A DNA stretch of 64,000 nt from Acidobacteriota bacterium. Its GTDB lineage: Bacteria; Acidobacteriota; Polarisedimenticolia; Polarisedimenticolales; JBBIHH01. Below the pieces are notes generated by a model. It did not search any database and had not been told where the DNA came from. It was given only the letters and a program-made list of their open reading frames with translations. This document shows, piece after piece, positions 44,444 to 60,677 of this stretch. Position 1 is the first letter of the stretch. Each line of letters opens with the position of its first letter. The stretch is taken from assembly GCA_037447115.1 (NCBI GenBank), contig JBBIHH010000008.1, forward strand, positions 34,225-98,224. The letters are read 5' to 3'. Position numbers and translations under genes: made by a program.

Positions 44444-44887
44444 TCACGCCACTGCAAGCTCGCTCGTGCAGTGCGGGCAACGCTTGGCCGCGATGGGAAT
44501 GTCCGTGGCACAGAACGGACAAGTCTTGGCCGTCGGAGCCGGCGGCGGTGCCTGGTCTTTTTTCTTCAAGCGGTTGATGGGCTTGACCACGAGGAAAATC
44601 GCGAACGCCACGATCAAAAAGTCCAGGACGTAGTTGACGAACAACCCGACGTTGATCGTGGGCGCACCCGCTTGCTGCGCCGCGGCCACCGTCTCGTAGC
44701 GCTTGCCCGAGAGGTCGACGAAGATATTCGAGAAGTCGACGCCGCCGGTGATCAGGCCGATGGGCGGCATCAAGATATCGTTGACGAACGACGAGACGAT
44801 CTTTCCGAACGCGCTGCCCAAGACGATCCCGACCGCCATGTCGAGCACGTTGCCACGCATCGCGAACTCTTTGAACTCCTTGAGCAT
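44444..44887 (-). CDS. mscL: Large-conductance mechanosensitive channel with C-terminal zinc ribbon
   Basis: [24 protein letters not shown]; tail CPFC..CPHC; GGAGG RBS. Confidence 0.96.
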
Positions 44888-44932
44888 ACCGACTCCTCCT
44901 TCCCTCCGTGTTTGCTTCGCTTTCGCTGTCTT

Positions 44933-45490
44933 CTACGGCGAAGGGCGACGGGAATCTTCTTCTCGATCCCGCGCTTGGATCAGCTGTTGCAGCTGCTTCG
45001 GGCCGGGAGAGTTCGAGCCACAGCCCCCGCCCTCGTCGGGGTAGCCCAGCTCTCGCGGTCCGACGCCAGGTTGTGCCCAGGAAAAACAGACGGCTGAGCG
45101 GCCATGAACGAACGCGACCGCTCGCCGCTCCGAGTAACCCGGGTCGTATACGCGCAAATCCAACCTTCCCTCGCCGACGACCTCGAAATCGCCGGCGATT
45201 GTGGACCCGGCGTCGCAGCGGAAGCGAAAGGGCGAGCGCTCGCCTTCCACCAGCCGGGACTTGCCATCGACCACGATGATCCCGCGGAAAGTCGCGCTCT
45301 TCGGGTGCACCTCCAGGACGAATCGGTAAGGCCGTTGCGGCCGGTCCGGGGCGCGCGCCTTGCCCGCCCGTCCTAGCGAGACCGAACCCGCGACGGCAAC
45401 AAGCGCCGCCGCGACGACCCAGAGTCGGGCGCTCTTCCGGTAGCGCCGGCGAGCGAGCGAGCGAGCGAGCGAATCATCTCGCTCCCCCAA
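44933..45490 (-). CDS. Hypothetical exported protein, possibly phase-variable
   Basis: Signal-like LWVVAAALVAVAGSVSLG then a beta-rich domain; in-frame TTG at 45490, while the RBS-preceded ATG at 45477 is out of frame. Confidence 0.55.
   Translation of the reverse strand: MGERDDSLARSLARRRYRKSARLWVVAAALVAVAGSVSLGRAGKARAPDRPQRPYRFVLEVHPKSATFRGIIVVDGKSRLVEGERSPFRFRCDAGSTIAGDFEVVGEGRLDLRVYDPGYSERRAVAFVHGRSAVCFSWAQPGVGPRELGYPDEGGGCGSNSPGPKQLQQLIQARDREEDSRRPSP
45449..45472. repeat. Tetranucleotide simple sequence repeat (GCGA)6 / (TCGC)6
   Basis: Six perfect units read directly. Confidence 0.95.
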
Positions 45491-45665
45491 GCTACGGGCG
45501 CATCCCACGACGAGGGCCTCTAGGGGCACGATTCTACGTGGGGTGCGCCCGGAGGCGGATCTTCGATGTCCATCGCGCCTGCGCAAGCACCGGCATCGGG
45601 GGCGGCGAGCCAGCGGCCGAGCTTTTGCCCCGGGGCGCCACCGCTGGCCGGTCGCCGCCGGCCAC

Positions 45666-46211
45666 CTACGGGTCGGAAGGGACTGCGGGAGACCACGCTT
45701 CCACGGTCAGGCTCGGGGGTGAAGCGTCCGCGCCGGCATCGAAGAGCCCGATCACGCGCACCCGCTGGCCGAGCAGATCTTCCCACTTTCTCGGCTCCTG
45801 CGCGACCGGACCCCCGGCCAGGCTCCACCGGCGCTGGACGCCGGGGATCTCCAGCTTGGGCCCTTCTTTCTCGAGCGCAAGAACGCCCACGGCCGTGACG
45901 CGGATCTCCCGGGGCGTGAAGCCCGCATCGCGCACGGCGCGGGGGATTCGCGCGGGATCGAAACTCCTGTCCTTGCGCGGCAGCACGATCGCCTCGCCTT
46001 CCTTCAAGCTCACCCGCACTTCGCCGACGCCTTCCAGGCGCCGCAGGGCCTTCTCGGCCCCGTAGGCTCAAAGCGGTCAGGTCATGCCGTCGAGCCGCAC
46101 GGCCGCGCGCTCCACCTGCGCCCACGAGGGTGCGGCGAAGACGACGACGAAGAAGAGCAGCGCCACGAGAGGCACGGGCGTTCCTGCCCGCCTCGAGGGC
46201 CGTGGGGTCAT
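45666..46211 (-). CDS. Exported heavy-metal-associated (HMA/CopZ-like) selenoprotein with UxxU motif, 181 aa by double UGA readthrough
   Basis: GAC GGC ATG ACC TGA CCG CTT TGA GCC TAC GGG = DGMT-U-PL-U-AYGAEKALRRLEGVGEVRVSL..AVRDAGF; joins ORFs 46077-46382 and 45666-46019 in one frame; signal peptide ..FAAPSWA; ATGA-coupled to upstream gene. Confidence 0.85.
46025..46062 (-). promoter_or_regulatory. Two adjacent candidate bacterial SECIS hairpins
   Basis: CGGGGCC-GAGAA-GGCCCUG (46062-46044) and CGGCGCCU-GGA-AGGCGUCG (46043-46025); both loops start with G. Confidence 0.6.
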
Positions 46212-47176
46212 CTCGAACCTCCCTTCACGGGCTCCAGAATCCAGATCCGATTCCCCGCCGGATCCGTCGCGTACAGACGCCCCGCGGGATGCCACGCCAC
46301 GGCCGCCGGCGACTGGAAGCGCGGCCCCTCCGCCGCCGGCAGCGCCCACTCGGCGATGTAGCTCCCGTCCGCAGCGAGCCACTGCAAGCGAAAGTTGCCG
46401 CTATCCGCGACATGGAGCTCACCGTCTGGCGCGACCGCGACGTCCACCGGGTCCTGGAACCGACCGTGCCAGCTCCCGGCGCTGCCCCAAGCCGCGACGA
46501 ACACCCCCTCGGGCGTGAACTTCTGGATCCGGTAGTTGTGCGCGTCCGCGACGTAGATCGCCCCGTCGGGGCCGACGGTGAGCCGGCCGGGATAGTGCAA
46601 GCGGCCGGGCTCTTGGCCTTCGCCACCCCACTGCAAGAGCCACCTCCCTCCGGCATCGAAAACCTGCACCCGGTGGTCGTAGAACTCGGAAACGTAGACC
46701 CGCGACGAGCCGTCCACGGCCACACCCACGGGCGAGGAAAGCTCGCCGGGTTCCGAGCCCGAGCGGCCCCACGCGCGGAGGAACGCTCCCCCGGACTCGT
46801 AGACTTGCACGCGGTCGAGCATGAAATCCACGACGTAGACCTGGCCGTCCGGGCCCACCGCCACGTCCATCGGGCGCAGCAACTGCCCGGGAGCCTCGCC
46901 GCACTCGCCCCAGGCCCGCAGGAACTCGCCCGCCTCGGAGAAAACCTGAACGCGGCAGTTCTCGGCGTCCGCCGCGTAGACCAGACCGTCGCCATCCACC
47001 GCGATCCCCTGCGGCCCGTGGAAGCGACCCGGCTCGCGGCCCTCTCCGCCCCACTGGCCGACGACGCGGTATCGGGCGACGGCGGGCGGCGCCGGTTCGG
47101 GGGCGCAGGCGAGGCCGCTGGCGTATCCCGCGAACAGGAGCGACAGGCGAAGGGTGCGCGATCTCAGAACAGCCAT
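46208..47176 (-). CDS. NHL-repeat six-bladed beta-propeller lipoprotein
   Basis: Repeats of WG..G.EPG....P.G/D.AV..DG.VYV.D..N.RVQ.F; GLAC lipobox-like. Confidence 0.9.
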   Translation of the reverse strand: MAVLRSRTLRLSLLFAGYASGLACAPEPAPPAVARYRVVGQWGGEGREPGRFHGPQGIAVDGDGLVYAADAENCRVQVFSEAGEFLRAWGECGEAPGQLLRPMDVAVGPDGQVYVVDFMLDRVQVYESGGAFLRAWGRSGSEPGELSSPVGVAVDGSSRVYVSEFYDHRVQVFDAGGRWLLQWGGEGQEPGRLHYPGRLTVGPDGAIYVADAHNYRIQKFTPEGVFVAAWGSAGSWHGRFQDPVDVAVAPDGELHVADSGNFRLQWLAADGSYIAEWALPAAEGPRFQSPAAVAWHPAGRLYATDPAGNRIWILEPVKGGSR

Positions 47177-47988
47177 CGCACGCCTGCGATGAGCGAGACG
47201 CGGGGACGCGTTTGATCGCCGTTCAGCTCGCGCACCACCGCGACGGGGACGGAGAACTCGAGGACGAGCCTGTTGCCCGGGATGTACTCGATGCCCGGCG
47301 AGAGATAAACGAGATGGCCCCCGCTGTCCGGCTGCGCGACGCCGTCCACGCGCGAGCGGCCTTCCCGGCGGCCGTTGAGTTCGAGCACGGTGTAGAGGGC
47401 GGGAACCCCGAGGCCATCGCGCGGTAGGGTCCGGTAGACGTAGGCCACGTCGTAGAGCCACTCGTGGCCGAAGCGCAGATCCCCCTCGCCCGCGCGGGCG
47501 TAGGTGAACTGCGCGTCCGCCACGAGCCAGTGCGGGTCGCGCACCCGCGAGAAGACGATCCCCGCGATGGGATCCGTCGAATGGTTGCCGAAGGCACCCC
47601 CCGTGGGGAGCTTCAAGCCGAAAAGCGGCGACAGGCGCGTGAAGCCGCGCGGCACGTTGCGCCGGAGGAGATCGTGGCGGGCGAAGACGAACCCATCGGC
47701 CGATCCGGTGGTTCGCGTCTCGCCCTGAAGGCCGTCGCGTTCGACGGAGACGATCGGCGCGACGAAGGTCAGGTGCCAGTGCCGGTACGGCGACCAGACG
47801 ACGGCCATGGGCCAGGTCATCCGCTGCACGCGTTCGCCCGAGGCGGCAGGGGCGAACGTGTCCAGGCGCACGAACGTGCGCAGCATGACAGTCCTGTTGA
47901 ACAGCGTGCGCCCGCCCGGAGCCACGATCTGCGCCGCCGCGGGCCACGCGAGCGCGGCCACGAGCCAGGCCGCGCCGGCCCGTCGCAG
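47164..47988 (-). CDS. Outer-membrane beta-barrel (MetA-pathway/phenol-degradation 'transporter' family-like)
   Basis: Signal ..LAWPAAA|Q; GLKLPTG, LELNG, DSGG.LVYLSPG; C-terminal Phe (VRWLF); start codon uncertain. Confidence 0.75.
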   Translation of the reverse strand: MRRAGAAWLVAALAWPAAAQIVAPGGRTLFNRTVMLRTFVRLDTFAPAASGERVQRMTWPMAVVWSPYRHWHLTFVAPIVSVERDGLQGETRTTGSADGFVFARHDLLRRNVPRGFTRLSPLFGLKLPTGGAFGNHSTDPIAGIVFSRVRDPHWLVADAQFTYARAGEGDLRFGHEWLYDVAYVYRTLPRDGLGVPALYTVLELNGRREGRSRVDGVAQPDSGGHLVYLSPGIEYIPGNRLVLEFSVPVAVVRELNGDQTRPRVSLIAGVRWLF

Positions 47989-48191
47989 GATCCCCCCGAA
48001 GCGTGCGTCAGGCCTCGGGGCCTCGGGCTGCGATCGGTGTTCCCTCGACTCCGTGCGGGGGACTCCTGCCGCGGCGGGCCGCCCGTTCCCGAGCGGGCTC
48101 CCGAGCCGCTTCCCGGAGTCTATTCGAGCCTCGATCGCGCTGCAAGCTCCACCTGGCCGCCGAACGCAACGGCCGCCTCTGCCCGCGCGCG

Positions 48192-48824
48192 TTAGAGCCA
48201 CGAAGCGAACTTCTGGCGCCAGCTCTCGGGCAAGGCCTCGAGCTCCGAGGCGGCGCGAAGCAACGCCCGGTCGCGGCACGCGCCGGTTCTGAGCGCGAAG
48301 ATCGTCGCGACGCTGAGACGCGACGGATGGCGGCCGACGATCTCCACCGGATCCCCCGCTTCGATCCACCCTTCCCGGCTCACCGCGAGGTAGAACCCTG
48401 GGCGCCCGCTTTGCAGGAAACGCCGCTCCATGTCGTCGCGGGCGAAACGGATGCCCAGCTTGTAGCAGGGCATGCGCGGGTGCGTGACGACGAACTCGGC
48501 GGTGCCCAGGCGCAGGCGGTCCCCGATACACACCGAGGCCTCGTCGAGACCTTCCACGGTCAAGTTTTCGCCGAACGCCCCGGCAGAAAGCGCGCCCGTT
48601 CCGAGCTCCCGTTCCCAGTACCGGTAATGCTCCAGCGGGTAGGCGCAGGCGGCCCTGTGCCTGCCGCCGTGCACGCTCGGATCCCCCGGCGCATCGCCTT
48701 CGAGGCGAGTCCGGTGCACCCGAACTCGCCCGGGGACGGCTTGCTTGAAGATCGCCGTGCGCACGAGCCTGCCCCGCCAGTGAACCTCCCGGGGCAGACC
48801 CGCGTTGACGGAAACAAGCCGCAT
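48192..48824 (-). CDS. MOSC domain protein (YiiM-like, with 3-alpha domain)
   Basis: TAIFK, HGG, GAFGENLT, IGD, PRMPCYKL, GFYL.V..EG. Confidence 0.93.
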   Translation of the reverse strand: MRLVSVNAGLPREVHWRGRLVRTAIFKQAVPGRVRVHRTRLEGDAPGDPSVHGGRHRAACAYPLEHYRYWERELGTGALSAGAFGENLTVEGLDEASVCIGDRLRLGTAEFVVTHPRMPCYKLGIRFARDDMERRFLQSGRPGFYLAVSREGWIEAGDPVEIVGRHPSRLSVATIFALRTGACRDRALLRAASELEALPESWRQKFASWL

Positions 48825-48948
48825 CGGAGCCCGCGTACTCCCGCCCCTCGCCAGCGAGGCCCGCGCAACGGGGCCATGATGCACCAGGAAGCGCCGCAGC
48901 CGCCGCGACCGCGCCGGCCAGGACCCACGCGGGGCACAGCCCGGGCCG

Positions 48949-50148
48949 TCAGGGTCGGCTGGGCACGATTCGAGTCTCCGAAAAGAACGTAAAACGAGCG
49001 GGCTCGGCTGCTCCGGGGCCGAGCGGGTGCTCGTAGTCGAGCTTGAGCGTCACGGTGGCCGGGCGCGCTTTCGGCACGGGAAACAGGAAGACTTCGCGGC
49101 GCAGCTCGTCGGGCCGCAGGCGCGTGTCCTCGACCTGGCGGCTGCCCGGCCGGAAGTAATCGGCCACAGCCACGATCTCGTGGCCCTCGGCGTCCAGGAA
49201 CCGTTTCCCGTAGACCTTGCGCTCCGTGTATGCTGGGCCCTCGAACACGTGCAGGACCACCTCCAGGATGACCCGCCGGCCCGGCATGCCCGTAGGCACG
49301 GCATGGCCGGCGCCCTTGTTCTCGATCTCCACGGTCAGCCGCAACGTTTCCTCCTCGCGCTCCGGATGGATGCCCACGCGCAGCGCCTTGTGCAGCATCG
49401 CCAGCGAGTGCCCGCCGGTCATGGCGTGGGTGTTGACGAGCGCGCGCGGGTCCCGTTGGATGCGGGGATCGACGACGTTGCCTTCTACCTCGGGCATGTG
49501 GCACGCCTGGCAAGTCACGCCCGAGGCGGCGGCCTCGCTCTGTCGCCACTCGGTGTAGGTCGTGAGCACGGGTATGCCGGCGTCGTTGGCGTACTCGTGG
49601 CACGGCGCGCAGACCAGGGACTGCATGTGCAGCTCCGAGTACGCGACGTCGTGCGCCGTGGATTCGGCATCGCGAACGGGCCCGCGCTTGACCGTGCCCA
49701 TCGTCACCTCGTAGCGGAACCGTGAATCCTCCGCCGCGACCGACCGCATGGTGTGGCAGAAATCGCACGTGACCCCTTCCCAGGTCACCTTGCGGGAGAG
49801 GGTGGGATCGCCGCCGTGACGAGCCAAAGGCGCATGGCATTCGAGGCAGACCCGGGCCAGGGCCGGGTCCTGGACTTCCAGAGTGCGGAAGCTCTCGAGG
49901 AAGGCAGGCGCTTCCATGGAGCGCGCGTGGGCGGATTGTCTCCACGCCGCGTAGATGTCCCTGTGGCACTCCCCGCAGGTATCGCTGCGCACGAAGCTAT
50001 CCGCGGGAATCCGGCCGATCGGCGCCGACGAAGAAGACGCGGCGAGCGACAGCATGCTCGTGCAAGCGAGGGCCGCAGCCACGAGACCGGTCTGCCGGCG
50101 AAGCGTCTGCGACGCGAATGCCCGCCGGCGGATCGTGCGCGTGTCCAT
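48949..50148 (-). CDS. Exported pentaheme c-type cytochrome (c554/c-552-like N-terminus)
   Basis: Five CxxCH motifs (CGECH, CLECH, CDFCH, CAPCH, CQACH); AGHAVPTG; signal peptide. Confidence 0.9.
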   Translation of the reverse strand: MDTRTIRRRAFASQTLRRQTGLVAAALACTSMLSLAASSSSAPIGRIPADSFVRSDTCGECHRDIYAAWRQSAHARSMEAPAFLESFRTLEVQDPALARVCLECHAPLARHGGDPTLSRKVTWEGVTCDFCHTMRSVAAEDSRFRYEVTMGTVKRGPVRDAESTAHDVAYSELHMQSLVCAPCHEYANDAGIPVLTTYTEWRQSEAAASGVTCQACHMPEVEGNVVDPRIQRDPRALVNTHAMTGGHSLAMLHKALRVGIHPEREEETLRLTVEIENKGAGHAVPTGMPGRRVILEVVLHVFEGPAYTERKVYGKRFLDAEGHEIVAVADYFRPGSRQVEDTRLRPDELRREVFLFPVPKARPATVTLKLDYEHPLGPGAAEPARFTFFSETRIVPSRP

Positions 50149-50423
50149 CGTTGGCACCCTGGCCCGGAGCGCCGAGACGCATCGGAGCTTACCGCGGAAC
50201 TCGGCCGATTCGGCTCTGCCTTCGGGACAGACGGAGTCCCCTGACGCGCGGCGCCCGTACCCGGGGGCAACGCTTTTGGCGGGCCGATGCGGGCGGCGGG
50301 CACGATTCGGCAGCGGCGCCCTACCATCATCGGCGATCCTGCGCGAAGATACCGACGCAGCCCCGGAAGGCCGGCGGTTTCGCTGGAGATTCTGGAGCTC
50401 CCCGGGGCGCAGGAGGACCGATC

Positions 50424-51209
50424 ATGGCACGCACGCCGAAGAAGTTTTTCCCGTGGCTCAGCGCCGCCGCGGCCATGGCACTGGCCGCGCTGCCGGCCGC
50501 GGGAGAGCAAACGCGCCTGGCCGTTCGCGTCCTGAGCGAGGACGCGAAGTTCGTGGGGACCTCCATGGGGGGTGCCCAGGTGCTGATCCACGATGCGGAC
50601 ACCGGGGAGCTGCTGGCCGAGGGTACGACGAGCGGCGGCACCGGAGACACCCGGCGAATCGTGCTCGAGCCGCGGCGCCGGGGCGAGCCCCTGTCCACAC
50701 CGGAAGCCGCTGGCTTCTACGCCACGCTCGAGCTCGAGCGGCCGCGCCGCGTGCGCATCACGGCGCGCGGACCCCTCGCCCAGCCGCAGGCGATCCAGGA
50801 GGTGAGCCGCACGCAGTGGGTTTTCCCGGGCCGGCACCTCGATCAGGGGGACGCGATTCTGCTCGTCCTCGCCGGGTTCGTGGTGGACATCCTGGAGCCT
50901 CCGGCGCACGTGCGTCTCGGCCCGCCGCCGCAGGAGGTTCCGCTGCGGATCAACCTCACGATGATGTGAGGCTGCCCCGCGGAGCCCGGAGGGCTCTGGG
51001 ACTCGACGCGCTGGCAGATCGAAGCGGTGGTGTTCCTGAACGGCGAGCAGCTCGCCGCGATCCCGCTCGACTACGCCGGCTCTCCGTCGCAGTTCGCAGC
51101 GACGGTCCGGGTCGAGCGGCCGGGTGTGTACGAGGTGCAGGTGTGGGCGAGCGACGCCCGCACCGGCAACACGGGGATGGATCGCACGACGTTCATCGTC
51201 GGACCGTGA
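50424..51209 (+). CDS. Exported selenoprotein candidate with MM-U-GCP (UxC) motif, 261 aa by UGA readthrough
   Basis: AGGAGG RBS; signal peptide; ATG ATG TGA GGC TGC CCC at 50961-50978; frame continues GCPAEPGGLWD..TGNTGMDRTTFIVGP into ORF 51027-51209. Confidence 0.82.
50980..50998 (+). promoter_or_regulatory. Candidate bacterial SECIS hairpin
   Basis: CGGAGCCC-GGA-GGGCUCUG; G-starting loop 18 nt after the UGA. Confidence 0.65.
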
Positions 51210-51386
51210 TCCGACCGGTCTCGCGGCCTTCCCCCGGTCCGCTTCGCGGACGAGGCCCCCGCACCCGGCGCACTCCGGACCGTCCCCGCAGGGAGGCCGG
51301 GGCGGCTTTCGCCCGCGCAGCCCCCACAGGCCCCCGAGCGCCAGGAGCAGACCGAGCGCCGCCACGGCGAGCAGGTGGATGATCAT
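51210..51386 (-). other. Small Cys-rich membrane peptide gene after rnfA with no nearby stop codon
   Basis: ATGA-coupled to rnfA; MIIHLLAVAALGLLLALGGLWGL..CGDGPECAGC; frame stays open to 49785. Confidence 0.45.
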
Positions 51387-51970
51387 TCGACGACCCCGTG
51401 AAAAAGGCCGGCGAAGCCCATGAAGGCCAGCGACAGGATGCCCGCGACGAAAAAGCTCAGGGCCGTGCCCCGCACGAGCCGCGGCACGGGGGCGAGCGCC
51501 GCCTCCTCCCGCAGGCTCGCCATCAAAACGAGGGCGAGCAGCAGCCCGACCCCCGCGCCCAGCGCGTAGATCACGCTTGCCAAAAGGCCGTAGCCGCGGT
51601 TGGTGGCGAACAGGGCGAGCCCGAGGATGGCGCAGTTCGTCGTGATCAGCGGCAGGTAGATGCCCAGCGCGCGGAACAGTGCCGGGCTCGTCTTGCGGAT
51701 CAGCATCTCCACGAACTGCACCGTGCTGGCGATGACCAGGATGAAGCTGATCAGCCTCAGGTACGGTACCCAAGGCAGCACGAACCGCTCGAGCAACCAG
51801 GCGGCGCCCGCGGTGATCGTCATGACGAAGATGTTGGCCAGCCCGAGGCGCAACGCGGTCGCCAGTCGTCCGGTCACGCCGAAGAAGGGGCAGAGGCCGA
51901 GAAAGTAGGTGAGGGTGAAGTTGTTGATCAGGCAAGCGGAAGCGAAGATCCAGATCAGCTCGCCCCTCAC
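51383..51970 (-). CDS. rnfA: Rnf electron transport complex subunit A
   Basis: INNF.L..FLGLCPF, LVIASTVQFVEM, GIYLPLITTNCAILG. Confidence 0.95.
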   Translation of the reverse strand: MRGELIWIFASACLINNFTLTYFLGLCPFFGVTGRLATALRLGLANIFVMTITAGAAWLLERFVLPWVPYLRLISFILVIASTVQFVEMLIRKTSPALFRALGIYLPLITTNCAILGLALFATNRGYGLLASVIYALGAGVGLLLALVLMASLREEAALAPVPRLVRGTALSFFVAGILSLAFMGFAGLFHGVVE

Positions 51971-52641
51971 GGTGCGCCTCCCCCGGAGCGCGCGGCCGCA
52001 GCCACGCGTGCCTGCTCGGCGCGGCGGCGCTGCTCGGCGCGCTCGCGCAGCCAGGCGAAGACGGTCAAGAGAAGCCCGAGCGCGAAGAACCCGCCCGGGG
52101 GCAGGATCATCACCGCCCACGGCTCGTAAGCCGCAGGCAAGACGCGCAAGCCCAGCACACGGCCGTTTCCGAGCAGCTCCCGCACCGCGCCGATCATGCA
52201 AAGGCTCAGAGCGAAACCTCCCGCCATGCCCGCCGCATCCGCCAGCGCCAGGACCGGCCTGTTCTTGGAGGCGAACGCTTCCTGGCGTCCCAGGATCAGG
52301 CAGTTGACCACGATGAGCGCGATGAACGCCCCGAGCTCCCTGTGGGCCACAGGCATCCAGGCGGCGAGGGCGAAGTCCACGGCCGTCACCAGCGTGGCGA
52401 TCACGACGATGTAGACCGAGATCCGCACCTGCCGCGGCACCACGTGACGCAAGGCGGAGACCACGAGGCTCGCCCCGATGAGCACGAACGCTGTCGCCCC
52501 GCTCATCACGAGCGCGTTGCGCAGGGAGGCGGTCACGGCCAGCGCGGGGCAAAGACCCAGGACCGCGATGAAGACGGGGTTCTCTCGCCACCAACCCTTG
52601 GCGAACTCCCGCCACGCGCTCTCACGCACCGGTCCGCTCAC
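51967..52641 (-). CDS. rnfE: Rnf electron transport complex subunit E
   Basis: ENPVF..LGLCPALAVT, LIVVNCLILGR.EAFASKN, VRELLG.G, LPPGGF. Confidence 0.95.
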   Translation of the reverse strand: MSGPVRESAWREFAKGWWRENPVFIAVLGLCPALAVTASLRNALVMSGATAFVLIGASLVVSALRHVVPRQVRISVYIVVIATLVTAVDFALAAWMPVAHRELGAFIALIVVNCLILGRQEAFASKNRPVLALADAAGMAGGFALSLCMIGAVRELLGNGRVLGLRVLPAAYEPWAVMILPPGGFFALGLLLTVFAWLRERAEQRRRAEQARVAAAARSGGGAP

Positions 52642-53272
52642 GCATCCGCTCCGCCGCGCGCTCCAGGCGCGGAAGCCAGGCTTCGAGGCTCCGGTTCAGG
52701 ATCGCCACCACCGCTTCCGAAGAGATCGTCGCCCCCGTGATGCAGTCCACCTCGTGGGGGCGGCGTTTTTCGCCGCGGCGCACGGCAACGACCTCCGGCT
52801 CCACCTCGAGGGCCCCGAAGTTGGCGAGAAAGTCCGGATCGTAGGCGATCTTGTCGCCGAGGCCGGGAGTCTCGCGGCTCTCCAGGACCTCCAGGCCGAT
52901 GACGAGGCGGCGCTGGGGATCGAAGCCGTAGACCAGGCGGATGGTGTCCTGAAAACCCGGGCCCTCGGCGGGGATCGCCACCCCGACCAGGGTGCCGTCC
53001 GGCCCGTAGCCCGCGAAGAGCGCCCCAGGAGGCGGGGGCACGTCGCGCGGCCCTTCGTAGCGCACCGGCTCGCCTTCCTTGAACAGCCAGGCCTCGATGC
53101 GCTCGGCTCCGGGAAGGACGCGCTGGGCTGCGGCGAAAAGCGCCCGCGCCCGGTTGCGCTGGATGGAAGGATCCGTCGCGAGGTAGACCCCCACGAGCAG
53201 CGCCCCGGCGAGCCAACCCGCCCCGCCGAGCGTGAGGATCAAGCGCCAAGGTCCCGGCTCGCGCTCCCGCAC
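52622..53272 (-). CDS. rnfG: Rnf electron transport complex subunit G
   Basis: N-terminal TM; GPGFQD.I, ETPGLG, FMN-Thr motif DCITGATISS; GGAGG RBS before GTG. Confidence 0.93.
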   Translation of the reverse strand: MREREPGPWRLILTLGGAGWLAGALLVGVYLATDPSIQRNRARALFAAAQRVLPGAERIEAWLFKEGEPVRYEGPRDVPPPPGALFAGYGPDGTLVGVAIPAEGPGFQDTIRLVYGFDPQRRLVIGLEVLESRETPGLGDKIAYDPDFLANFGALEVEPEVVAVRRGEKRRPHEVDCITGATISSEAVVAILNRSLEAWLPRLERAAERMRERTGA

Positions 53273-53273
53273 G

Positions 53274-54269
53274 TCAGCCTCCGTAGGGGCGCGGTTGGCT
53301 GTAGCGGTTGATGAGCGGTGTCGCCGCATTCATCAACAGGATCGCGTACATCACGCCCTCGGGAAGGCCGCCCCAGACGCGGATGAGCACGACGAGCACC
53401 GCCACGCCGGAGCCGAAGATCCAGGCCCCGAGGGGCGTCAGCGGCGTGGTCACCGGATCGGTCACCATGTAGACAGCTCCGAAGAGCAACCCGCCCGAAA
53501 GCACCGTGAAGGCCGGCGGAGGGCACTGCTCGGGCAGGACCGCGTGGAGCACGCCGCTCAGCAGCGCCACGCCCAGGATCGTGGAAACGCAGAGCCGCCA
53601 GTCGAACACCCGGCGCAACGCGAGGACCAGCCCGCAGACTACGAGCACGACGGCCGAGGTTTCGCCGAGCGATCCGGCGGTGTTGCCGAACCAGAGCGCT
53701 TCGAGTTCCGTCGGCTGGCCGGCGAACTTGGCGAGCCCGAGGGGTGTGGCGCTCGTGGTCACGTCCACGTCCGCGCGCATGAAGGGCCAGGCGAACGTGC
53801 TCGCCGGCACGGACCAGAGGTCGCGCCCGGGAGGTGTCCATGTCGTCAGCGCTTCGGGAAAGGCCGCCTGCAGGAAGGCGCGCCCCACGAGTGCGGGGTT
53901 GAACAAATTCTGCCCCAACCCGCCCCAGATCGTCTTGCCCAGGCCGATGGCCACCACCCCACCGAGAAAAGCCATCCACAGCGGGAGCGCAGGGGGCAGG
54001 GTCAGGGCGAGCAACACGCCCGTGAGCAGCGCGCTCCCGTCGCGCAGCGTTCCCAGGCCCCGCCGCGAGGCGCCGAAAAACCATTCCGTGAGCACGGCCC
54101 CGGCGCTCGACGCGAGCACGACGAGCAGCGCCGCCACGCCGAAGAAGTAGACCGCCGCGCCGACGACCGGCACGAGGGATGCCAGCACCTCGTACATCAA
54201 GCGCCGGGTGCTCAGGCCACGGTGGAGAAACGGAGCCGCTCTCAGCTCGAGCCGCGGCGCCTCGCTCAT
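53274..54269 (-). CDS. rnfD: Rnf electron transport complex subunit D
   Basis: DGSALLTG, GGLGQNLFNPALVGR, FMN-Thr motif TSATPL, GSLGETS, MVTDPVTTP, PEGVMYAILLMN. Confidence 0.95.
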   Translation of the reverse strand: MSEAPRLELRAAPFLHRGLSTRRLMYEVLASLVPVVGAAVYFFGVAALLVVLASSAGAVLTEWFFGASRRGLGTLRDGSALLTGVLLALTLPPALPLWMAFLGGVVAIGLGKTIWGGLGQNLFNPALVGRAFLQAAFPEALTTWTPPGRDLWSVPASTFAWPFMRADVDVTTSATPLGLAKFAGQPTELEALWFGNTAGSLGETSAVVLVVCGLVLALRRVFDWRLCVSTILGVALLSGVLHAVLPEQCPPPAFTVLSGGLLFGAVYMVTDPVTTPLTPLGAWIFGSGVAVLVVLIRVWGGLPEGVMYAILLMNAATPLINRYSQPRPYGG

Positions 54270-55615
54270 GCGACCTGCCTCGTGCGGCGGGCCTGGCGCA
54301 CGAGTGCCTTGCCCACGCGGATGAGCTGCACGAGAGGGATGTGCGAGGGGCAGACATAGGCGCAGCTCCCGCACTCGAAACAGTCGAGCGCGTGCAGGCG
54401 CTCGAGGGCCTCCACGTCTTGCTGCCGCGCCAGCGCGGCGAGGCGCGAAGGGTTCAGGATCATGGGGCAGGCTTCCAGGCAGCGGCCGCAGCGGATGCAG
54501 GGATCCTCTTCGACGAAGCCCAGGGGGCGGCTGAAGGCGAGCACGCCCGAGGTGCCCTTGACGATGGGCGCCTCGAGCGTTTTCTGCGCCTGCCCCATCA
54601 TCGGTCCTCCGAGAATCACCTGACGCGCCTCCTCCCGCAGGCCGCCGCAGTGCTCGACCACGTCCGCCAGCGGGGTGCCGATAGGGACGAGCAGGTTCGC
54701 CGCGCGGCGCAGCCCATCGCCCGCCGCGGTGACCACCCGCTCGATGAGCGGCTGGCCGCGATCGAACAGATCCGCCAAGGCAGCCGCAGTCGCCACGTTC
54801 TGCACGAGGATTTCCAGGTCCAGGGGAAGCTTGCCGCTCGGGACTTCTCGATGGAAGATCGTCTCGATAAGCATGCGTTCCGCCCCCTGCGGGTACTTGA
54901 CGCGCAAGGAGACCACCTCCACCCGCGGGTCGTCCCGGGCCTCCGCTTGCAAAGCCTCGATCGCGTCCGGCTTGTCCGCCTCGATCCCGATATAACCGCG
55001 CTCGCAACCCGTCACTTGCATCAGGATCCTCAGGCCGCGCACGACGGCGTCGCGCCGTTCCACCATCAGGCGGTGATCGCAGGTGAGATAGGGTTCGCAC
55101 TCGCAGCCGTTGAGCACGACGAAGCGCACGCGCTTGCCCTCGGGCACGTCGAGTTTCACGTGGGTCGGAAAGGCCGCGCCGCCGAGCCCGACGAGCCCGC
55201 CGAGCTGGATGCGGCGCAGGATCTCCTCGCGCGGCAGCCACCGCGGGTCCGCAGGCCGGATGTGAGCGGCCCGCTGGGGATCGAAGGGATCGGCGCGGAT
55301 CACGACGGCGAGCTGGCGCGTACCGGTGGGATGCGGTCGCGGTTCGACGGCCTCCACCACCCCCGTCACGGGCGCATGCACGGCCACCGACAGGTAGCCA
55401 TGGGGGCGGCCCACGATCTGGCCGCGATGCACGCGCTCGCCGCGGCGCACGACGGGCACGGCCGGCGCACCCGTGTGCTGGGACATGGGTACGACATAAC
55501 GCTCCACGAACGGCATGCGCTCGATGGGCAGCCGGTTCGTGGCTTCCTTGGATGCTTCCGGGTGTACCCCGTGGCGGAAGCTGGGGCCGCCCCACAGGAC
55601 CCAGGGACCGATCAT
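54266..55615 (-). CDS. rnfC: Rnf electron transport complex subunit C
   Basis: QHTGAPA, GLGGAAFPTHVK, NGCECEPYLTCD, KYPQGAE, GGPMMG, CIRCGRCLEACP, CFECGSCAYVCP. Confidence 0.96.
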   Translation of the reverse strand: MIGPWVLWGGPSFRHGVHPEASKEATNRLPIERMPFVERYVVPMSQHTGAPAVPVVRRGERVHRGQIVGRPHGYLSVAVHAPVTGVVEAVEPRPHPTGTRQLAVVIRADPFDPQRAAHIRPADPRWLPREEILRRIQLGGLVGLGGAAFPTHVKLDVPEGKRVRFVVLNGCECEPYLTCDHRLMVERRDAVVRGLRILMQVTGCERGYIGIEADKPDAIEALQAEARDDPRVEVVSLRVKYPQGAERMLIETIFHREVPSGKLPLDLEILVQNVATAAALADLFDRGQPLIERVVTAAGDGLRRAANLLVPIGTPLADVVEHCGGLREEARQVILGGPMMGQAQKTLEAPIVKGTSGVLAFSRPLGFVEEDPCIRCGRCLEACPMILNPSRLAALARQQDVEALERLHALDCFECGSCAYVCPSHIPLVQLIRVGKALVRQARRTRQVA

Positions 55616-58600
55616 CGTTGCGTCCCCCGCGTCCCGGGCGGGATGGCACGGCGCGCCAGCTCCAGCAGCCGCTCCCGCAGGCGCTGCACGTGGCGCGTCT
55701 GCTCCTGCGCCAGCTGCGCCGCCAGCTTGGCCTCGTATTCCCGGCGCAAGGCCTCGAGTTCTCCCTCGTGGCGTGCCCGCAGCTCCTGCGCGACTTGGCG
55801 CCGCACCGCAGCGGTGAACGGCGTGACCGAACCCGCCCACTCCTGGAGCAGCTGCCAGCGAGCCAGGCGCTCGCGCACGGCTTGCGAGAGAAAACCCCCG
55901 AGCGCGAGGCGGTCCCCACTCGGGCCGGATGGGGGCACTGGGACCTCTCCTCGCGCACCGGGGGAGCTCGAGAGCCACTCGGCGAACGAAGGCGAGCCCT
56001 GCGCGGCCGGCGTCTGGAAGGCATCCGCGTAGCGCGCCTCGCCGGCCGCCCAGTGGACGGGCGTGACGGGTTCGCCGTCTTCGCGCAACGACCACAGCTG
56101 TTCGGGCGCCGGGTTGCCTTCCAGGGAAAGGCGCTTGCCGAAGACGCCTTCGCGGCGCGGATCGTAGGTGAACAGCGGATGCACGCGCGCCTCCACGGCA
56201 AGCCGCGCGCGTTCGACGGTGTCCGCCGGCGCGAAGCCGTGGGCCCGCGGCCGCGGCGCGTAGACCTGGACCAGGGCGGGCCCGTCGAAGCGCAGCGCCT
56301 CGCTCAGCGCCCGGAAGGCATGGTTCGGATGGGCGATCGAGGTGGCCGCCACGAAGGCTCGGCGCAGCGCCAGTGCCGTCAGGACAGGATCGGTGTCGCG
56401 CGCCAGATCGAGGCCGTCGAGAAGCAAAAGTTTCACGGGAAGATCCGATCGAAGCAGCCGCGCGAAGCTCGACAGCGCCTGCTCGCTCAGCTCCGCCGCG
56501 TCCGCCACGACGACGACGAGCGGGCAGGCGGCGCGCTCCTCGGCGTCGAGATCGGACCAAGCCAGTTGGCGCAGAGCCCGCTCGCGCGCGGCGAGATCCG
56601 CCGGAATCTCGCACCAGAGCGAAGCCCGGCGAAAGAGGCGCGCCTCGCGTAGGTAGGCCTCGGTCCAGGCATGCGCCAGACCGAGGGCAAGGTCGCATGC
56701 CTGCGCCGCATCGGCGGCCACGACGGGAACGCCGAAGGGATTCGCCGGAAAGCGCAAAGCCCAGCGCGCCACCTCGTCCCCGGCCACGACCAGCCCGAAG
56801 GGCGCGCGGCCGACCCCCGCGGCGCCTTGCCGGATCGCCCGGAGCTGCCGCTCCGCGGCGCGGGCGAGCCCGACCCACCGTCTCAGGCGTGTCGTGTCCA
56901 CCGCCGCCGCCACGCCCTCGGCCTCCACCCTCGCGATCAAGGACCCGAGGCTGGAGCCGGGACCTTCCGCGAGGGCCTCGTGCAGGCGCTCCAAGTCCTC
57001 CACCGGAAGGGCGTGTTCCAGCGTGTCGCGGATGGCGCGCCGCAGGCGCTCCACCAGCGCTTCCAGCCTGGCCGCGCGGGCGACCAGGGCGCGGCGGCGC
57101 TCGTATTCCGCCACCGCGACGAGATGGCGCAGGGCCAGGCGGTCGCCCGAGCCCGCTTCGGCGGCGCCGCCTCCCGGAAGGGCGAGCGCGCAGGTCCGCG
57201 AGAGCATGAGGGCGGAGAGACCGTCGAGCCGCTCTTGCTCCATCGCGGCGGAGATCGTCGCGTCCGATGTCTCCGGAAGCGACTGCCAGAGCCTCCAGGC
57301 CCTGCGCGCACGTCTCCGGCCCTCGGGCGTCGCGTCTTCCAGGGCGATCGCCTTCTCGGGACAGACGGCGGCGCAGATGCCGCATGCTTGGCAGTGGCCC
57401 TCGTCGAGGGCGAAGGCGATCCACTCGCCGCTGCCGCGGGCGGCTCTGCGAGGCTCGTGGAAAAACGCCTCGCTCGCCACGAGCGTCAGATCGCGAAGCT
57501 TTTCGATGGCCGCCTCGCCCAGCTCGCGCATGCGCGCGCGAGCCGCGTCGTCCGCACCGACTCGCTCCGCCACCCACGCCAGCGCTTGCCGCGCGGCCTC
57601 CGCGTTCCATGCCCTCTCGCCTGCCTTGCCGAGCGTGCCGTCGAGGCGTTGTGCCCAGGGCTGGAGCGCCCGCCCGAGTTGGCCCACGGCGGGGTCGTCC
57701 TGCAATCCTCCTGCGCTCACGACCTCGTCCAACGCCGCGCGCAGCAGGGCGTCGGTCTTGGCTGCCGAGGCCACGATCGCGCTATCGGGGCACGCAACCC
57801 AGCACGCACCGCACGCCGTACAGCGTTGGGCGTTCAGCGCGGGCAGCTGGTCCAACGGGGCCGGCCGCGCTGCGAGCGCGGCGCTGAGCGCAGGCACTGC
57901 AGGTAGCGCGAGGAACGGATCGGGCGCGCGTTCCACCCGTTCGCCTTCCTGCCGGGGCTCCTCCCGTTCGCCCCAGAAACGCGCGAGGCTGTCGTAGGTG
58001 CGGGCGGTAGAGGCGAGCCGGCGCACGGGAGCGGGTGGCGGGCTGGGCTCGAAAGAATCGGCCGGCGGCGGCTGCGCTGGGGCAGGGATGTCCGCGAACG
58101 CTTCCGGTCCCTGGCGAAGCCAGCGCGCGACCGCTGCGAGGGGCGTGTCTCCGGTGGTCTTCCACTTACCCAGCCCCGGAGCGTGCGCCACGAGGCGCCC
58201 GGGGCCTTCGGCACCGCACAGCACGACCGCGCCAGCCGCCGCGAGTTCCTCCAACCGCCGCCCGAGCAGCCGTGCCGTGCCGGGCTCGAGACAGACCGCT
58301 TCGGGCGGCACGTCCTCGCCGGGGTGCGCGAGGGGCTTTGCCGCCCCCACTTGGCACAGCCACCACAGGCCCGGCTCGATTTCCACCACCCGACCGTGCA
58401 GGAACGGACCCACAGCGTCTTCCACGAGGCGCGCAAGCTCGGCCGCCACCGACTCGGGCGGTCCCGGATGCCGAAGGGCAACGGCCACGGCGCGCGCACC
58501 CTCGGGCAGCTTCGGCACATCCCTTCCGGCGAGGACGGCACGCTCCCAATCCGGACGCAGGCGCGCCGTTTCCTGGAGCAGCACCTGGCGTTTGGGAAAG

Positions 58601-59844
58601 CGTGTCGAGGCGCGCTGCGGCGGTTCGAGACCGAGAATGGCCCCGTCTTCGAGCTCCGACCCGTGCTCGTAAAGCGCCGCGAGATCGGCGGCACAAGCGG
58701 AGAAGAAACGCACCGTCCGTATCCGCGTGGGCGCCGCGCCGCGGCGCCCTTCCGCCGGAACTTCCCCGAACGCACGGGCCAGAGCGCGCGCCCACGCGCC
58801 TGCAAGCCAGCCGCTCGGCTCGAGGACCGTGACGTCGTGCGCCTGCGCGAGGGCGCGGGCGATCTCTTGCGCCGGCACGGGATCCACGAGCAGCGGCGAG
58901 ACGATCGCCCAGCGCGGGCGCTTGTCCGAGCGCTGCAGCGCGTAGCGGGCGACTTCGGCGGCGGGCCCGAACGCCACGAGCCCATGACGAGATCTTGGCG
59001 ACGCTCGACCCGCGACGGCGGCAAGCGCGCGACCTGTCAGAGAAGCGAATTCGTCGAACCACGACTCCAAGCGTGGCAGGAATTTTTCCCCGGCGAACAG
59101 GCTGCGGGCCGCTTGATGGAGCGCCAGATCTCGCTCGTCCCTCCACGGCGAAAGCGCGACGGGACGTTCAGGGTCGAGCCAAGCGTGCACGACCGCCCGC
59201 TCGCCGCCGAAACCCAGCGCACTTGCGGGCTCGCTCGCGCGCCGTTGAGCCGCAGCCCGGCCGAGGAAGCGCTGGAGCAGCTCCCTTTCGCAGAGGCGCA
59301 CGGTGTGCCCGGGCAAAAGCAAGCAGGATTGCTCGAGGAGGAGCAGCACCGGCCGGAGTGCGTCTTCGGCCAGGCGCCAGCCCGCGACCGTGAGGTCGAG
59401 CGCCTCCTGGAGCTGGCGCGGCTGGAAGCACACCGGCCACGGCGCCCCGTCCACCGGCGCCGGTACGGGATCGGAGGCGGCCCAGGCTGCGTGAACCACG
59501 AGCGAAGCCCGCAGCTCCGCCGCCCGCCGTAGCAGATCCTCCGCGCGCGCCAGCGCGCCTCGCTCGAGGACGACGAGGGTGCGGCGGCCCGCGAGGGCTG
59601 CACCGAGCGCCTGTGCCAGGCGCGCTCTCGCGTCCGGCTGCACGATCGAGCGCACCTCGTCGCCGAAGGCATTGCGGGCCCCTTCCATGCGCTCGGGGGC
59701 CAGTCCGGGCGGCAGCGCCAGCGTGTCCGCGATCCGCACCCCGAGGGCGAGCAGAGCGCGCAAGCCCGTACCGCGCCACTCCTCGCCGGGAAACTCCGGC
59801 GGCGATTGGGACGGGCGCCGGCGCAGCCACGGCCCGAGACTCAT
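55612..59844 (-). CDS. Degenerate pyruvate:ferredoxin oxidoreductase-like protein (1410 aa) with two 4Fe-4S motifs
   Basis: PFOR domain order; CTACGACWVACP and CQACGICAAVCP; ARLAVEARVHPLFTYDP..LSLEGNP; catalytic and TPP motifs not recognisable. Confidence 0.8.
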   Translation of the reverse strand: MSLGPWLRRRPSQSPPEFPGEEWRGTGLRALLALGVRIADTLALPPGLAPERMEGARNAFGDEVRSIVQPDARARLAQALGAALAGRRTLVVLERGALARAEDLLRRAAELRASLVVHAAWAASDPVPAPVDGAPWPVCFQPRQLQEALDLTVAGWRLAEDALRPVLLLLEQSCLLLPGHTVRLCERELLQRFLGRAAAQRRASEPASALGFGGERAVVHAWLDPERPVALSPWRDERDLALHQAARSLFAGEKFLPRLESWFDEFASLTGRALAAVAGRASPRSRHGLVAFGPAAEVARYALQRSDKRPRWAIVSPLLVDPVPAQEIARALAQAHDVTVLEPSGWLAGAWARALARAFGEVPAEGRRGAAPTRIRTVRFFSACAADLAALYEHGSELEDGAILGLEPPQRASTRFPKRQVLLQETARLRPDWERAVLAGRDVPKLPEGARAVAVALRHPGPPESVAAELARLVEDAVGPFLHGRVVEIEPGLWWLCQVGAAKPLAHPGEDVPPEAVCLEPGTARLLGRRLEELAAAGAVVLCGAEGPGRLVAHAPGLGKWKTTGDTPLAAVARWLRQGPEAFADIPAPAQPPPADSFEPSPPPAPVRRLASTARTYDSLARFWGEREEPRQEGERVERAPDPFLALPAVPALSAALAARPAPLDQLPALNAQRCTACGACWVACPDSAIVASAAKTDALLRAALDEVVSAGGLQDDPAVGQLGRALQPWAQRLDGTLGKAGERAWNAEAARQALAWVAERVGADDAARARMRELGEAAIEKLRDLTLVASEAFFHEPRRAARGSGEWIAFALDEGHCQACGICAAVCPEKAIALEDATPEGRRRARRAWRLWQSLPETSDATISAAMEQERLDGLSALMLSRTCALALPGGGAAEAGSGDRLALRHLVAVAEYERRRALVARAARLEALVERLRRAIRDTLEHALPVEDLERLHEALAEGPGSSLGSLIARVEAEGVAAAVDTTRLRRWVGLARAAERQLRAIRQGAAGVGRAPFGLVVAGDEVARWALRFPANPFGVPVVAADAAQACDLALGLAHAWTEAYLREARLFRRASLWCEIPADLAARERALRQLAWSDLDAEERAACPLVVVVADAAELSEQALSSFARLLRSDLPVKLLLLDGLDLARDTDPVLTALALRRAFVAATSIAHPNHAFRALSEALRFDGPALVQVYAPRPRAHGFAPADTVERARLAVEARVHPLFTYDPRREGVFGKRLSLEGNPAPEQLWSLREDGEPVTPVHWAAGEARYADAFQTPAAQGSPSFAEWLSSSPGARGEVPVPPSGPSGDRLALGGFLSQAVRERLARWQLLQEWAGSVTPFTAAVRRQVAQELRARHEGELEALRREYEAKLAAQLAQEQTRHVQRLRERLLELARRAIPPGTRGTQR

Positions 59845-60677
59845 TCGACCAGCTCCTCCACGGGCCTGTCCTCGAACTGCCGGCCCTCGATCCACCGAAT
59901 CGCCCCCGTGGGGCAGCGATAGGTGCACGTCTCGTCCACGCGCTTCGGGTCGAGGATCACGGGCAGGTTGTCGCGCATCTCGATCGCTCCGGGGGGCGCG
60001 TCCAGGGCGCAGCGGCCGCAGGCATCGCAGGCGACACGGCACAGGGCGCGGATCGCCTCGCCCGCGAGCGGCGCGCGGCACTGCACGATGAGCTTGTGCG
60101 AGATCGGCTCCAGCGTGAACAGCTCCAGCGGGCAGGCTTCGACGCAATCGCCGCAGGCCGTGCATTTCTCTGGCTCCACCACGGGCAGCTCTTGCTCGTT
60201 CATCCAGATGGCGTCGAAGGTACAGGCACGCTCGCAATCTCCGAAGCCCAGACATCCCCAGGGGCACGCCCGCTCCCCCGCGTTGACCCAATAGGCGGCC
60301 CGGCAGGAGCGCGGCCCGCTGTAGTCGGCCAGGCGCCGCACCGCCGACTTGCCTCCCGCGCAGTGAAGCCGGGCGACCCGTTTTTCCTCGAGGCCCGCCT
60401 CGACCCCGAGAAACTTGGCGATCGCCTGGACCGCCGAGGCCGGACTGACGGTGCACTTGCCTGGAGCGGTGCGGCCTGCCACGAGCGCTTCGGCGAAGCT
60501 GCGGCAACCCGGCTCGCCGCAGGCCCCGCAGTTCGTGCCGGGAAGGAGGCGTTCCACCGCTTCGATGCGCGGGTCCTCCTCGACCCGCAGGTAGCGGTGC
60601 GCCACCGCCAGGACGGCACCGAAGAAAAAGGCGATACCGCCGAGGACGCCGCTCGCCAGAACCAATGCGTTCACCAT
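59841..60677 (-). CDS. rnfB: Rnf electron transport complex subunit B
   Basis: LPGTNCGACGEPGC, CPWGCLGFGDCERAC, CTACGDCVEACP, CDACGRC, CPTGAI. Confidence 0.95.
   Translation of the reverse strand: MVNALVLASGVLGGIAFFFGAVLAVAHRYLRVEEDPRIEAVERLLPGTNCGACGEPGCRSFAEALVAGRTAPGKCTVSPASAVQAIAKFLGVEAGLEEKRVARLHCAGGKSAVRRLADYSGPRSCRAAYWVNAGERACPWGCLGFGDCERACTFDAIWMNEQELPVVEPEKCTACGDCVEACPLELFTLEPISHKLIVQCRAPLAGEAIRALCRVACDACGRCALDAPPGAIEMRDNLPVILDPKRVDETCTYRCPTGAIRWIEGRQFEDRPVEELVE

Follow-up and report, generated by a model that had tools for sequence, protein, structure and literature searches.

The locus lies on the minus strand of the window, by which we mean the whole 64,000-nt stretch of DNA analyzed here, and its local order is an outer-membrane barrel gene, a gene for an NHL propeller, and a gene for a predicted exported protein with an HMA domain, the stops and starts of which overlap (Table 1). 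The ATG of this last gene, hereafter the UxxU gene, shares ATGA with the TGA stop of the gene upstream, and a search for a sigma-70 promoter in window 44800-48400 found none. Its conceptual translation under table 11 (window 46211-45666, minus strand) reads MTPRPS...RLDGMT*PL*AYGAEKALRRLEGVGEVRVSL...AVRDAGF...PSDP*, a frame of 181 codons that is open apart from two TGAs and is terminated by TAG. Both TGAs occupy the Cys positions of the HMA signature (GMT-TGA-PL-TGA), as an initial annotation made from the letters of the window had noticed, and its remark that such a gene is invisible to gene callers also holds, since callers retain only a 117-aa tail, which is all of the UxxU protein that the public protein set contains (P0002). 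The readthrough protein found three matches only in protein databases, each beginning past the UGAs, as do the database proteins P0002, P0003, and P0004. Protein databases thus show post-UGA tails only, and the UxxU forms are seen only at the DNA level. P0003 bears an additional DUF5818 domain.

Table 1. Features of the locus, in window positions
Feature	Position	Strand	Basis or remark
Gene for signal peptide, HMA (UxxU), and OB-like protein	45666..46211	-	181 residues
Ribosome-binding site AAGGGAGG	46218..46225	-	6 nt 5' of ATG
Predicted signal peptide, residues 1-31	46119..46211	-	Hydrophobic helix 15-25; putative cleavage between SWA and Q, from A-x-A
HMA (CopZ/MerP-type) domain, residues 33-104	45900..46115	-	Pfam and predicted structure
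C-terminal beta domain, OB-fold-like, residues about 101-179	45675..45911	-	Structural matches of the whole model
UGA1, Sec45, first Cys of GMxCxxC	46077..46079	-	Translation and homolog register
UGA2, Sec48, second Cys of GMxCxxC	46068..46070	-	Translation and homolog register
Hairpin A, SECIS-like, loop GAGAA	46044..46062	-	-13.4 kcal/mol; 21 nt after UGA1, 12 after UGA2
Hairpin B, SECIS-like, loop U-GGA-A	46025..46043	-	-11.7 kcal/mol; 32 nt after UGA2, 41 after UGA1
NHL-repeat beta-propeller gene, probable lipoprotein (GLAC read by eye)	46208..47176	-	Start overlaps barrel gene end
Outer-membrane barrel, PF13557 (Phenol_MetA_deg) type, ends WLF	47164..48000	-	Start uncertain

Assembly error is an unlikely origin of the TGAs. 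A contig of run X1 (depth 91), possibly the source run, shows no differences across the stretch, and a contig of run X2 from a second strain (45741-46435, 695 nt, depth 4.3) shows eight, none of them at either TGA; X1 and X2 are assembled contigs from one study rather than raw reads, and neither TGC nor TGT replaces the TGAs in the contigs of the two runs. Two in-frame stops under table 11 might suggest a pseudogene or an artefact of assembly, but this is hardly credible given that the second strain's contig holds both TGAs and that the pair recurs in 21 other distinct homologs, which also bears out the earlier argument that two chance nonsense mutations at exactly these codons are implausible. 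Moreover, a metagenome search for a pattern of two TGAs plus hairpin B, with hairpin A not required, returned 120 matches, 112 of which are in-frame family members. A separate contig of run X1 (record 4; depth 9.7, eight differences) matches window 46017-46085, the UGA and hairpin region, and is probably another family member within the same run.

The initial annotation had described a signal-peptide protein with an HMA fold and a small OB-like C-terminal domain, and the three parts agree with our models to different degrees. Export is predicted from the hydrophobic helix 15-25 and the A-x-A site, whose Ala31 is invariant in the family alignment (12 sequences). The readthrough protein matches the Pfam HMA model PF00403 with 37.2 bits against a cut-off of 24.8, and its predicted structure (mean pLDDT 85; E33-41, H46-57) is ferredoxin-like, with the CxxC loop before helix 1. 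In a structure search with the model, residues 33-104 matched 4a48_A (Z 8.6, rmsd 1.4 over 66 residues), and the structural matches of the HMA region include MerP (1osd), CopZ (6ff2), and PacS. For the C-terminal domain, the middling scores of the whole model against the OB-fold chains 3u4z_B, 4dam_A, 5gqo_B, and 1nnx_A (Z 5.5-6.2) are suggestive of an OB-like fold; folded alone, the domain reaches a pLDDT of 47, and it has no match in NCBIfam. The mature chain contains no Cys, no His, and one Met. Lacking Cys and His, it would have the two Sec as its obvious soft ligands.

NF041115, as the accessible text of PMC13188914 and PMC9312934 shows, already catalogues a selenoprotein of the HMA type that has UxxU and two Sec. 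The early claim that an exported UxxU form is unusual is therefore too strong, although the query still falls outside NF041115 by cut-off (42.3 versus 95 bits). NF041115 (UxxU_metal_bind, "metal-binding (seleno)protein," "putative mercuric reductase") shares the HMA-type domain with UxxU and is the query's second-best NCBIfam match (E 6e-11). Six homologs score 32-48 bits against this model, likewise below its cut-off, no match over the cut-off occurs in 301 phylum genomes, and plain single-domain MerP-like CxxC proteins, with scores of 75-83, rank above the query family. The NF041115 model spans 74 positions; what sets the query family apart from this model, besides the scores, is an additional OB-like domain of 80 residues and a barrel partner that is conserved. 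MerP (TIGR02052), the CopZ-type models (NF047957, NF033794, and NF033795), and PF00403 share the fold and the GMxCxxC register of the query, and MerP is likewise exported. Unlike MerP and CopZ, the query has Sec for both Cys and an extra C-terminal domain, and all its equivalog scores lie below the cut-off (e.g., 37.9 bits for MerP TIGR02052, cut-off 92.55). A literature search returned no description of a two-domain HMA and OB-like family and no account of tandem bacterial SECIS, either of which may stand in supplements, BSepDB, or subscription papers. We consider it very likely that the UxxU gene is a real, unannotated double-Sec gene with a motif that was itself already known.

A 12-sequence profile run against 401 phylum genomes matched 55 of them at E<=1e-15. 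From the fetched loci, a subset of all profile matches that lacks some of the weaker ones, we drew 52 distinct full-length members, leaving out L069 (no Cys or Sec motif), L071 (motif mis-assigned), single-domain HMA matches below 70 bits, and duplicates; a profile search of representatives was swamped by multi-HMA proteins and does not enter the counts. The CxxC, UxxC, and UxxU homologs that the initial annotation had proposed to look for all exist: the 52 members divide into 22 UxxU, 12 UxxC, and 18 CxxC, with no CxxU. All 18 CxxC and 12 UxxC homologs align their Cys in register with the UGAs of the query, and the 21 other UxxU members are 24-54% identical to it 3' of the motif. With the motif and hairpin region excluded from the tree, the UxxC genes group in a single supported clade (100/99) in which four CxxC genes are nested, and the UxxU genes spread over several lineages on an unresolved base. 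UxxU and hairpin B may therefore have a single origin, and a count of 22 in 22 does not amount to 22 independent events. When the 401 genomes were searched for a CxxU form accompanied by hairpin B, 2 gave a match, neither with an HMA frame, and a search of seven genomes for Cys revertants of the UNFU clade recovered the query alone.

Several loci depart from this series. One family paralog (L069, in G367) has the motif GMHSPLA, with neither Cys nor Sec, and two longer UxxU members (L067/L095 and L202) have frames that extend 541 and 256 codons beyond the motif. Single-domain MerP-like proteins with GMT-U-GGC (UxxC) occur at L095 near 3098 (+) and at L253, the former locus also having a UxxU family gene, 2.6 kb downstream of the MerP-like one. 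A scan of genome contigs gave four distant loci at 28-33% identity. Within the source genome (G000), we looked for further UxxU frames followed by two hairpins and obtained the UxxU gene and two unconvincing frames, which we rejected. G000:C4:100053-100262 and C22:37436-37645 (L050 and L051) each encode a single-domain CxxC HMA protein of the ordinary kind, with a hydrophobic leader at the N terminus.

The di-selenocysteine reading of the initial annotation came with the advice to confirm selA, selB, selC, and selD in the genome. Each is present above its cut-off in the source genome, which is 100% complete (selA 445 bits, selB 330, selD 367, and a tRNA-Sec of 67.9 bits with anticodon TCA), and selD carries one in-frame TGA of its own. 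Global recoding of TGA, which had been discounted because many genes end in this codon, is indeed excluded, since the two genes upstream of the UxxU gene terminate in TGA, the barrel ending in WLF just as its L089 homolog does, and the tRNA-Trp has the anticodon CCA. We surveyed the Sec machinery in 45 genomes with family members (21 UxxU, 11 UxxC, and 13 CxxC only). Among the UxxU genomes, selB was found in 19 of 21 and tRNA-Sec in 18 of 21, with at least one of the two in all 21; both were found in 10 of 11 UxxC genomes, and selB in 8 of 13 CxxC-only genomes. In G379, a UxxC genome that is 100% complete, selB, tRNA-Sec, and selD were sought and none was found. Its UxxC member (L075/L115) retains an intact hairpin; the gene may possibly have been transferred recently, the genome may have lost the machinery, or binning may have missed it.

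One or both UGAs could in principle be read as Cys by SelC*/tRNA-ReC, giving a CxxC or mixed site. The accessible text of PMC13582414 raises tRNA-ReC for UGA as Cys and reports that, of the genomes with UXXU hydrogenases, about 56% have a tRNA-ReC. Such decoding is nevertheless very improbable here, as G000 has a single UCA-anticodon tRNA and one ordinary tRNA-Cys, and the sub-cut-off matches to RF01852 that we inspected were ordinary tRNAs, mostly Ser and Leu. With the Sec machinery present in G000 and with UxxU, UxxC, and CxxC homologs in register, we are highly confident, on the strength of the sequences, that both codons would specify Sec. The three observations that the initial annotation had set against its own reading, i.e., a genome without Sec genes, TGC or TGT in the reads, or homologs without Cys at these positions, were not encountered.

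That account did not mention two features of the locus, the tandem SECIS-like hairpins and the conserved barrel partner. With numbering from UGA1, the stem of hairpin A is formed by nt 19-24 and 30-35 and that of hairpin B by nt 38-44 and 48-54. In the bacterial SECIS consensus (Zhang and Gladyshev model, as given in the accessible text of PMC13188914), the published spacing from the UGA is 16-37 nt. The UxxU gene has instead two elements back to back and UGAs 6 nt apart, each in range of one: hairpin A lies within 16-37 nt of UGA1 only, and hairpin B within the same distance of UGA2 only. We applied the loop, stem, and spacing rules of this source with an energy cut of -4 instead of -7.5 kcal/mol. 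A consensus hairpin was found in UxxU genes at site 1 in 18 of 22 (18-21 nt) and at site 2 in 22 of 22 (31-32 nt), in UxxC genes in 11/12 and 2/12, and in CxxC genes in 3/18 and 4/18, respectively. Four of the 22 UxxU genes fail the site-1 test, and some clades have no G in the first two loop positions of A. In GC-rich DNA, an energy cut of -4 kcal/mol lets too much through when used by itself: 4 of 8 non-family matches pass, and 4 of 5 Cys-type SelD genes pass distally. We therefore put weight on the constancy of register, on covariation, and on the comparison with synonymous nulls.

Across the 22 UxxU genes, 90.2% of cells are paired in the A+B structure versus 37-52% in slid controls, a comparison that leans in favor of the structure because it was derived from the same UxxU sequences. 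Two-sided changes affect five of the six pairs of helix A and two of the seven pairs of helix B, four of which are invariant; such compensatory changes in the alignment support both predicted stems. The Arg CGC, Gly GGC, and Val GTY codons of hairpin B are each fixed in 22/22 UxxU genes, and synonymous alternatives to them are common elsewhere in the same genes. Against synonymous-codon nulls (p<=0.05), hairpin A stands out in 15 and hairpin B in 18 of the 22 UxxU genes, compared with 3/12 and 0/12 for UxxC and 0/18 and 0/18 for CxxC. The near hairpin of the UxxC genes is 96.7% paired and their hairpin B positions 34.5%, and the CxxC subclade that lies within the UxxC clade no longer has the near hairpin. 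Among metagenome members, with a cut of -3, a site-1 hairpin at 20-21 nt occurs in 76 of 90 distinct members, 69 of which belong to one clade. Within 60 nt, the family varies naturally in its number of UGAs (two, one, or none) and of hairpins (likewise two, one, or none), and its value lies in this series together with the conserved channel partner.

How one bacterial mRNA directs the insertion of two close Sec is a question left open in a 2026 paper on UXXU Group 4 [NiFeSe] hydrogenases (PMC13582414), which share with the query two UGAs at CxxC spacing in an otherwise unrelated protein and for which, in the accessible text, a single shared SECIS is proposed. Judging from the sequences, the UxxU gene is likely to use one hairpin per UGA. 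SelB-tRNA(Sec) would use hairpin A for UGA1. Since no more than about 6 nt separate UGA2 from the start of hairpin A, a ribosome reaching UGA2 would, from the geometry, unwind hairpin A, which would by then sit inside the ribosome, so that each UGA would need a hairpin of its own and hairpin B would then serve UGA2. The proposal made for the hydrogenases has its counterpart here in a model where SelB recruitment at both UGAs depends on hairpin B alone, hairpin A being only a pause element or a spacer bringing B closer. Hairpin B does fit the consensus loop exactly in 22/22 genes, whereas the loop of A varies. Furthermore, the single-UGA selD of G000 (L010, G000:C12) has a comparable pair, with loops near 16-19 and 33 nt past the UGA, which is common to G002; the presence of a far hairpin in single-UGA SelD means that a hairpin pair need not imply two UGAs. 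However, the loop of B lies 41 nt from UGA1, beyond the 16-37 nt range, UxxC genes carry the near hairpin only (11/12 versus 2/12), and in Sec-type SelD genes the near hairpin passes more commonly than the far one (17/24 versus 8/24). We therefore regard a single SECIS as unlikely.

The gene neighborhood of the family is dominated by the barrel, which was found in 85 of 96 loci (UxxU 68/77, UxxC 11/11, CxxC 6/8). About 44 of the 96 loci belong to one clade, which dominates the locus counts. The copy in the window has no match in Pfam; its nearest protein-atlas clusters are PF13557 (0.98), and 3 of 8 barrel homologs tested match PF13557. The NHL gene accompanies 12 of 77 UxxU loci, and a TlpA/ResA-like gene for a thioredoxin-like CxxC protein 52 of 77 UxxU and 0 of 11 UxxC loci; the clade of the window has NHL and no TlpA. 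Genes for MerR-family regulators occur in 12 of 96 loci (UxxU 4/77, UxxC 4/11, CxxC 4/8) and cation-efflux genes in 10 of 96, MerT and CopZ-like genes also lie near homologs, and a single MerA above the cut-off was found, at L092. A gene for a Cys-rich leader precedes the UxxU gene in 36 of 77 loci, mostly ending in HAPP or RAPP: the ends are xAPP in 30 of 33 UNFU cases and RAPP or RGPP in 9 of 10 UATU-type loci. The UNFU leaders (L152, L174, and 31 other loci) lie about 1.1-1.5 kb upstream and head the operon, as do the UATU leaders (L093, L094, L167, and other loci).

Such an arrangement recalls CruR, described in the accessible text of PMC9426467 as a copper-sensing arrest peptide that heads copper operons. 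Two clades of the query family share with these CruR/DUF2946 operons a Cys-rich HAPP/RAPP leader, an outer-membrane transporter, and a gene of the AhpC/TSA fold. They differ from them in that none of the five leaders scanned matched DUF2946 (PF11162) and the channel is PF13557-like rather than TonB-dependent; the locus in the window has no leader. Indeed, neither a metal-specific neighbor nor a CruR-like leader was found at the window locus, which is flanked by the barrel, the NHL protein, and a MOSC protein rather than lying in a mer operon. Window 48192-60507 encodes this MOSC protein and a multiheme cytochrome, both by Pfam, and beyond them genes that we take to be Rnf-type complex-like as well as a presumed pyruvate:ferredoxin oxidoreductase-like protein.

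These associations make a metal chaperone role reasonably likely for the UxxU protein. If it is one, copper would be its probable cargo and mercury a distinctly less likely one. On the whole, we somewhat favor a double-Sec, hairpin-guided, predicted periplasmic chaperone for a soft metal, most likely copper(I), that serves the outer-membrane channel. The protein would be exported and then cleaved after Ala31, leaving the two Sec as the sole Cys-type ligands of the mature form. With least certainty, the metal would sit between two selenolates, as it does between two thiolates in CopZ and MerP, and would move between the PF13557 barrel and partners acting downstream, with the OB-like domain perhaps serving as a docking surface.

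Two other functions have to be weighed against this one. Most prokaryotic selenoproteins are thought to be redox-active (accessible text of PMC9312934), and two Se at CxxC spacing in a protein predicted to be exported could form a periplasmic diselenide/selenol redox center recycled by the TlpA-like partner, with metal binding incidental. The distribution of the TlpA/ResA-like gene (52/77 UxxU versus 0/11 UxxC loci) fits this idea. We nonetheless hold it to be unlikely, since the fold is HMA rather than thioredoxin, the neighbors include MerR, MerT, MerA, CopZ-like, and cation-efflux genes together with CruR-like leaders, and the clade of the window has an NHL gene in place of TlpA. Selenolates bind Hg very tightly, and mer-type genes lie beside several homologs, one of them with the MerA over cut-off at L092, so that the protein might alternatively be a one-way, selenium-based Hg or Ag sink in the periplasm that does not hand on its metal. 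Such a sink is quite improbable, because mer-type neighbors are commonest with UxxC and CxxC (MerR 4/11 and 4/8 versus 4/77 for UxxU) and the constant pairing with a channel suggests transfer.

If the chaperone role is true, it would tie selenium to periplasmic copper or mercury traffic via a channel family that bears a phenol-degradation name, and the bis-selenolate HMA site would suit as a clean model for comparing metal binding by Se and S. With considerable reservation, we put forward a wider picture, in which a relay of two tandem SECIS would decode UGAs three positions apart, the second taking over once the ribosome melts the first, in an uncatalogued, widespread family that would build a periplasmic bis-selenolate site and acquire copper through it together with a dedicated outer-membrane channel, some clades doing so under the control of an arrest peptide. 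The pattern of two TGAs plus hairpin B is estimated to occur in about 1,400 metagenome stretches, and this would make for a hidden class of exported selenoproteins of which callers keep the tails only.

The window also contains a second candidate hidden selenoprotein on the plus strand (50424-51209, TGA at 50967-50969), a signal-peptide protein with TMM-U-GCP. It has no NCBIfam match over the cut-off, and its 50-nt fold is no better than that of shuffles (z -0.36). About 18 nt past the UGA lies a hairpin with the loop GGA, and the UGA position is U in one relative and C in four.
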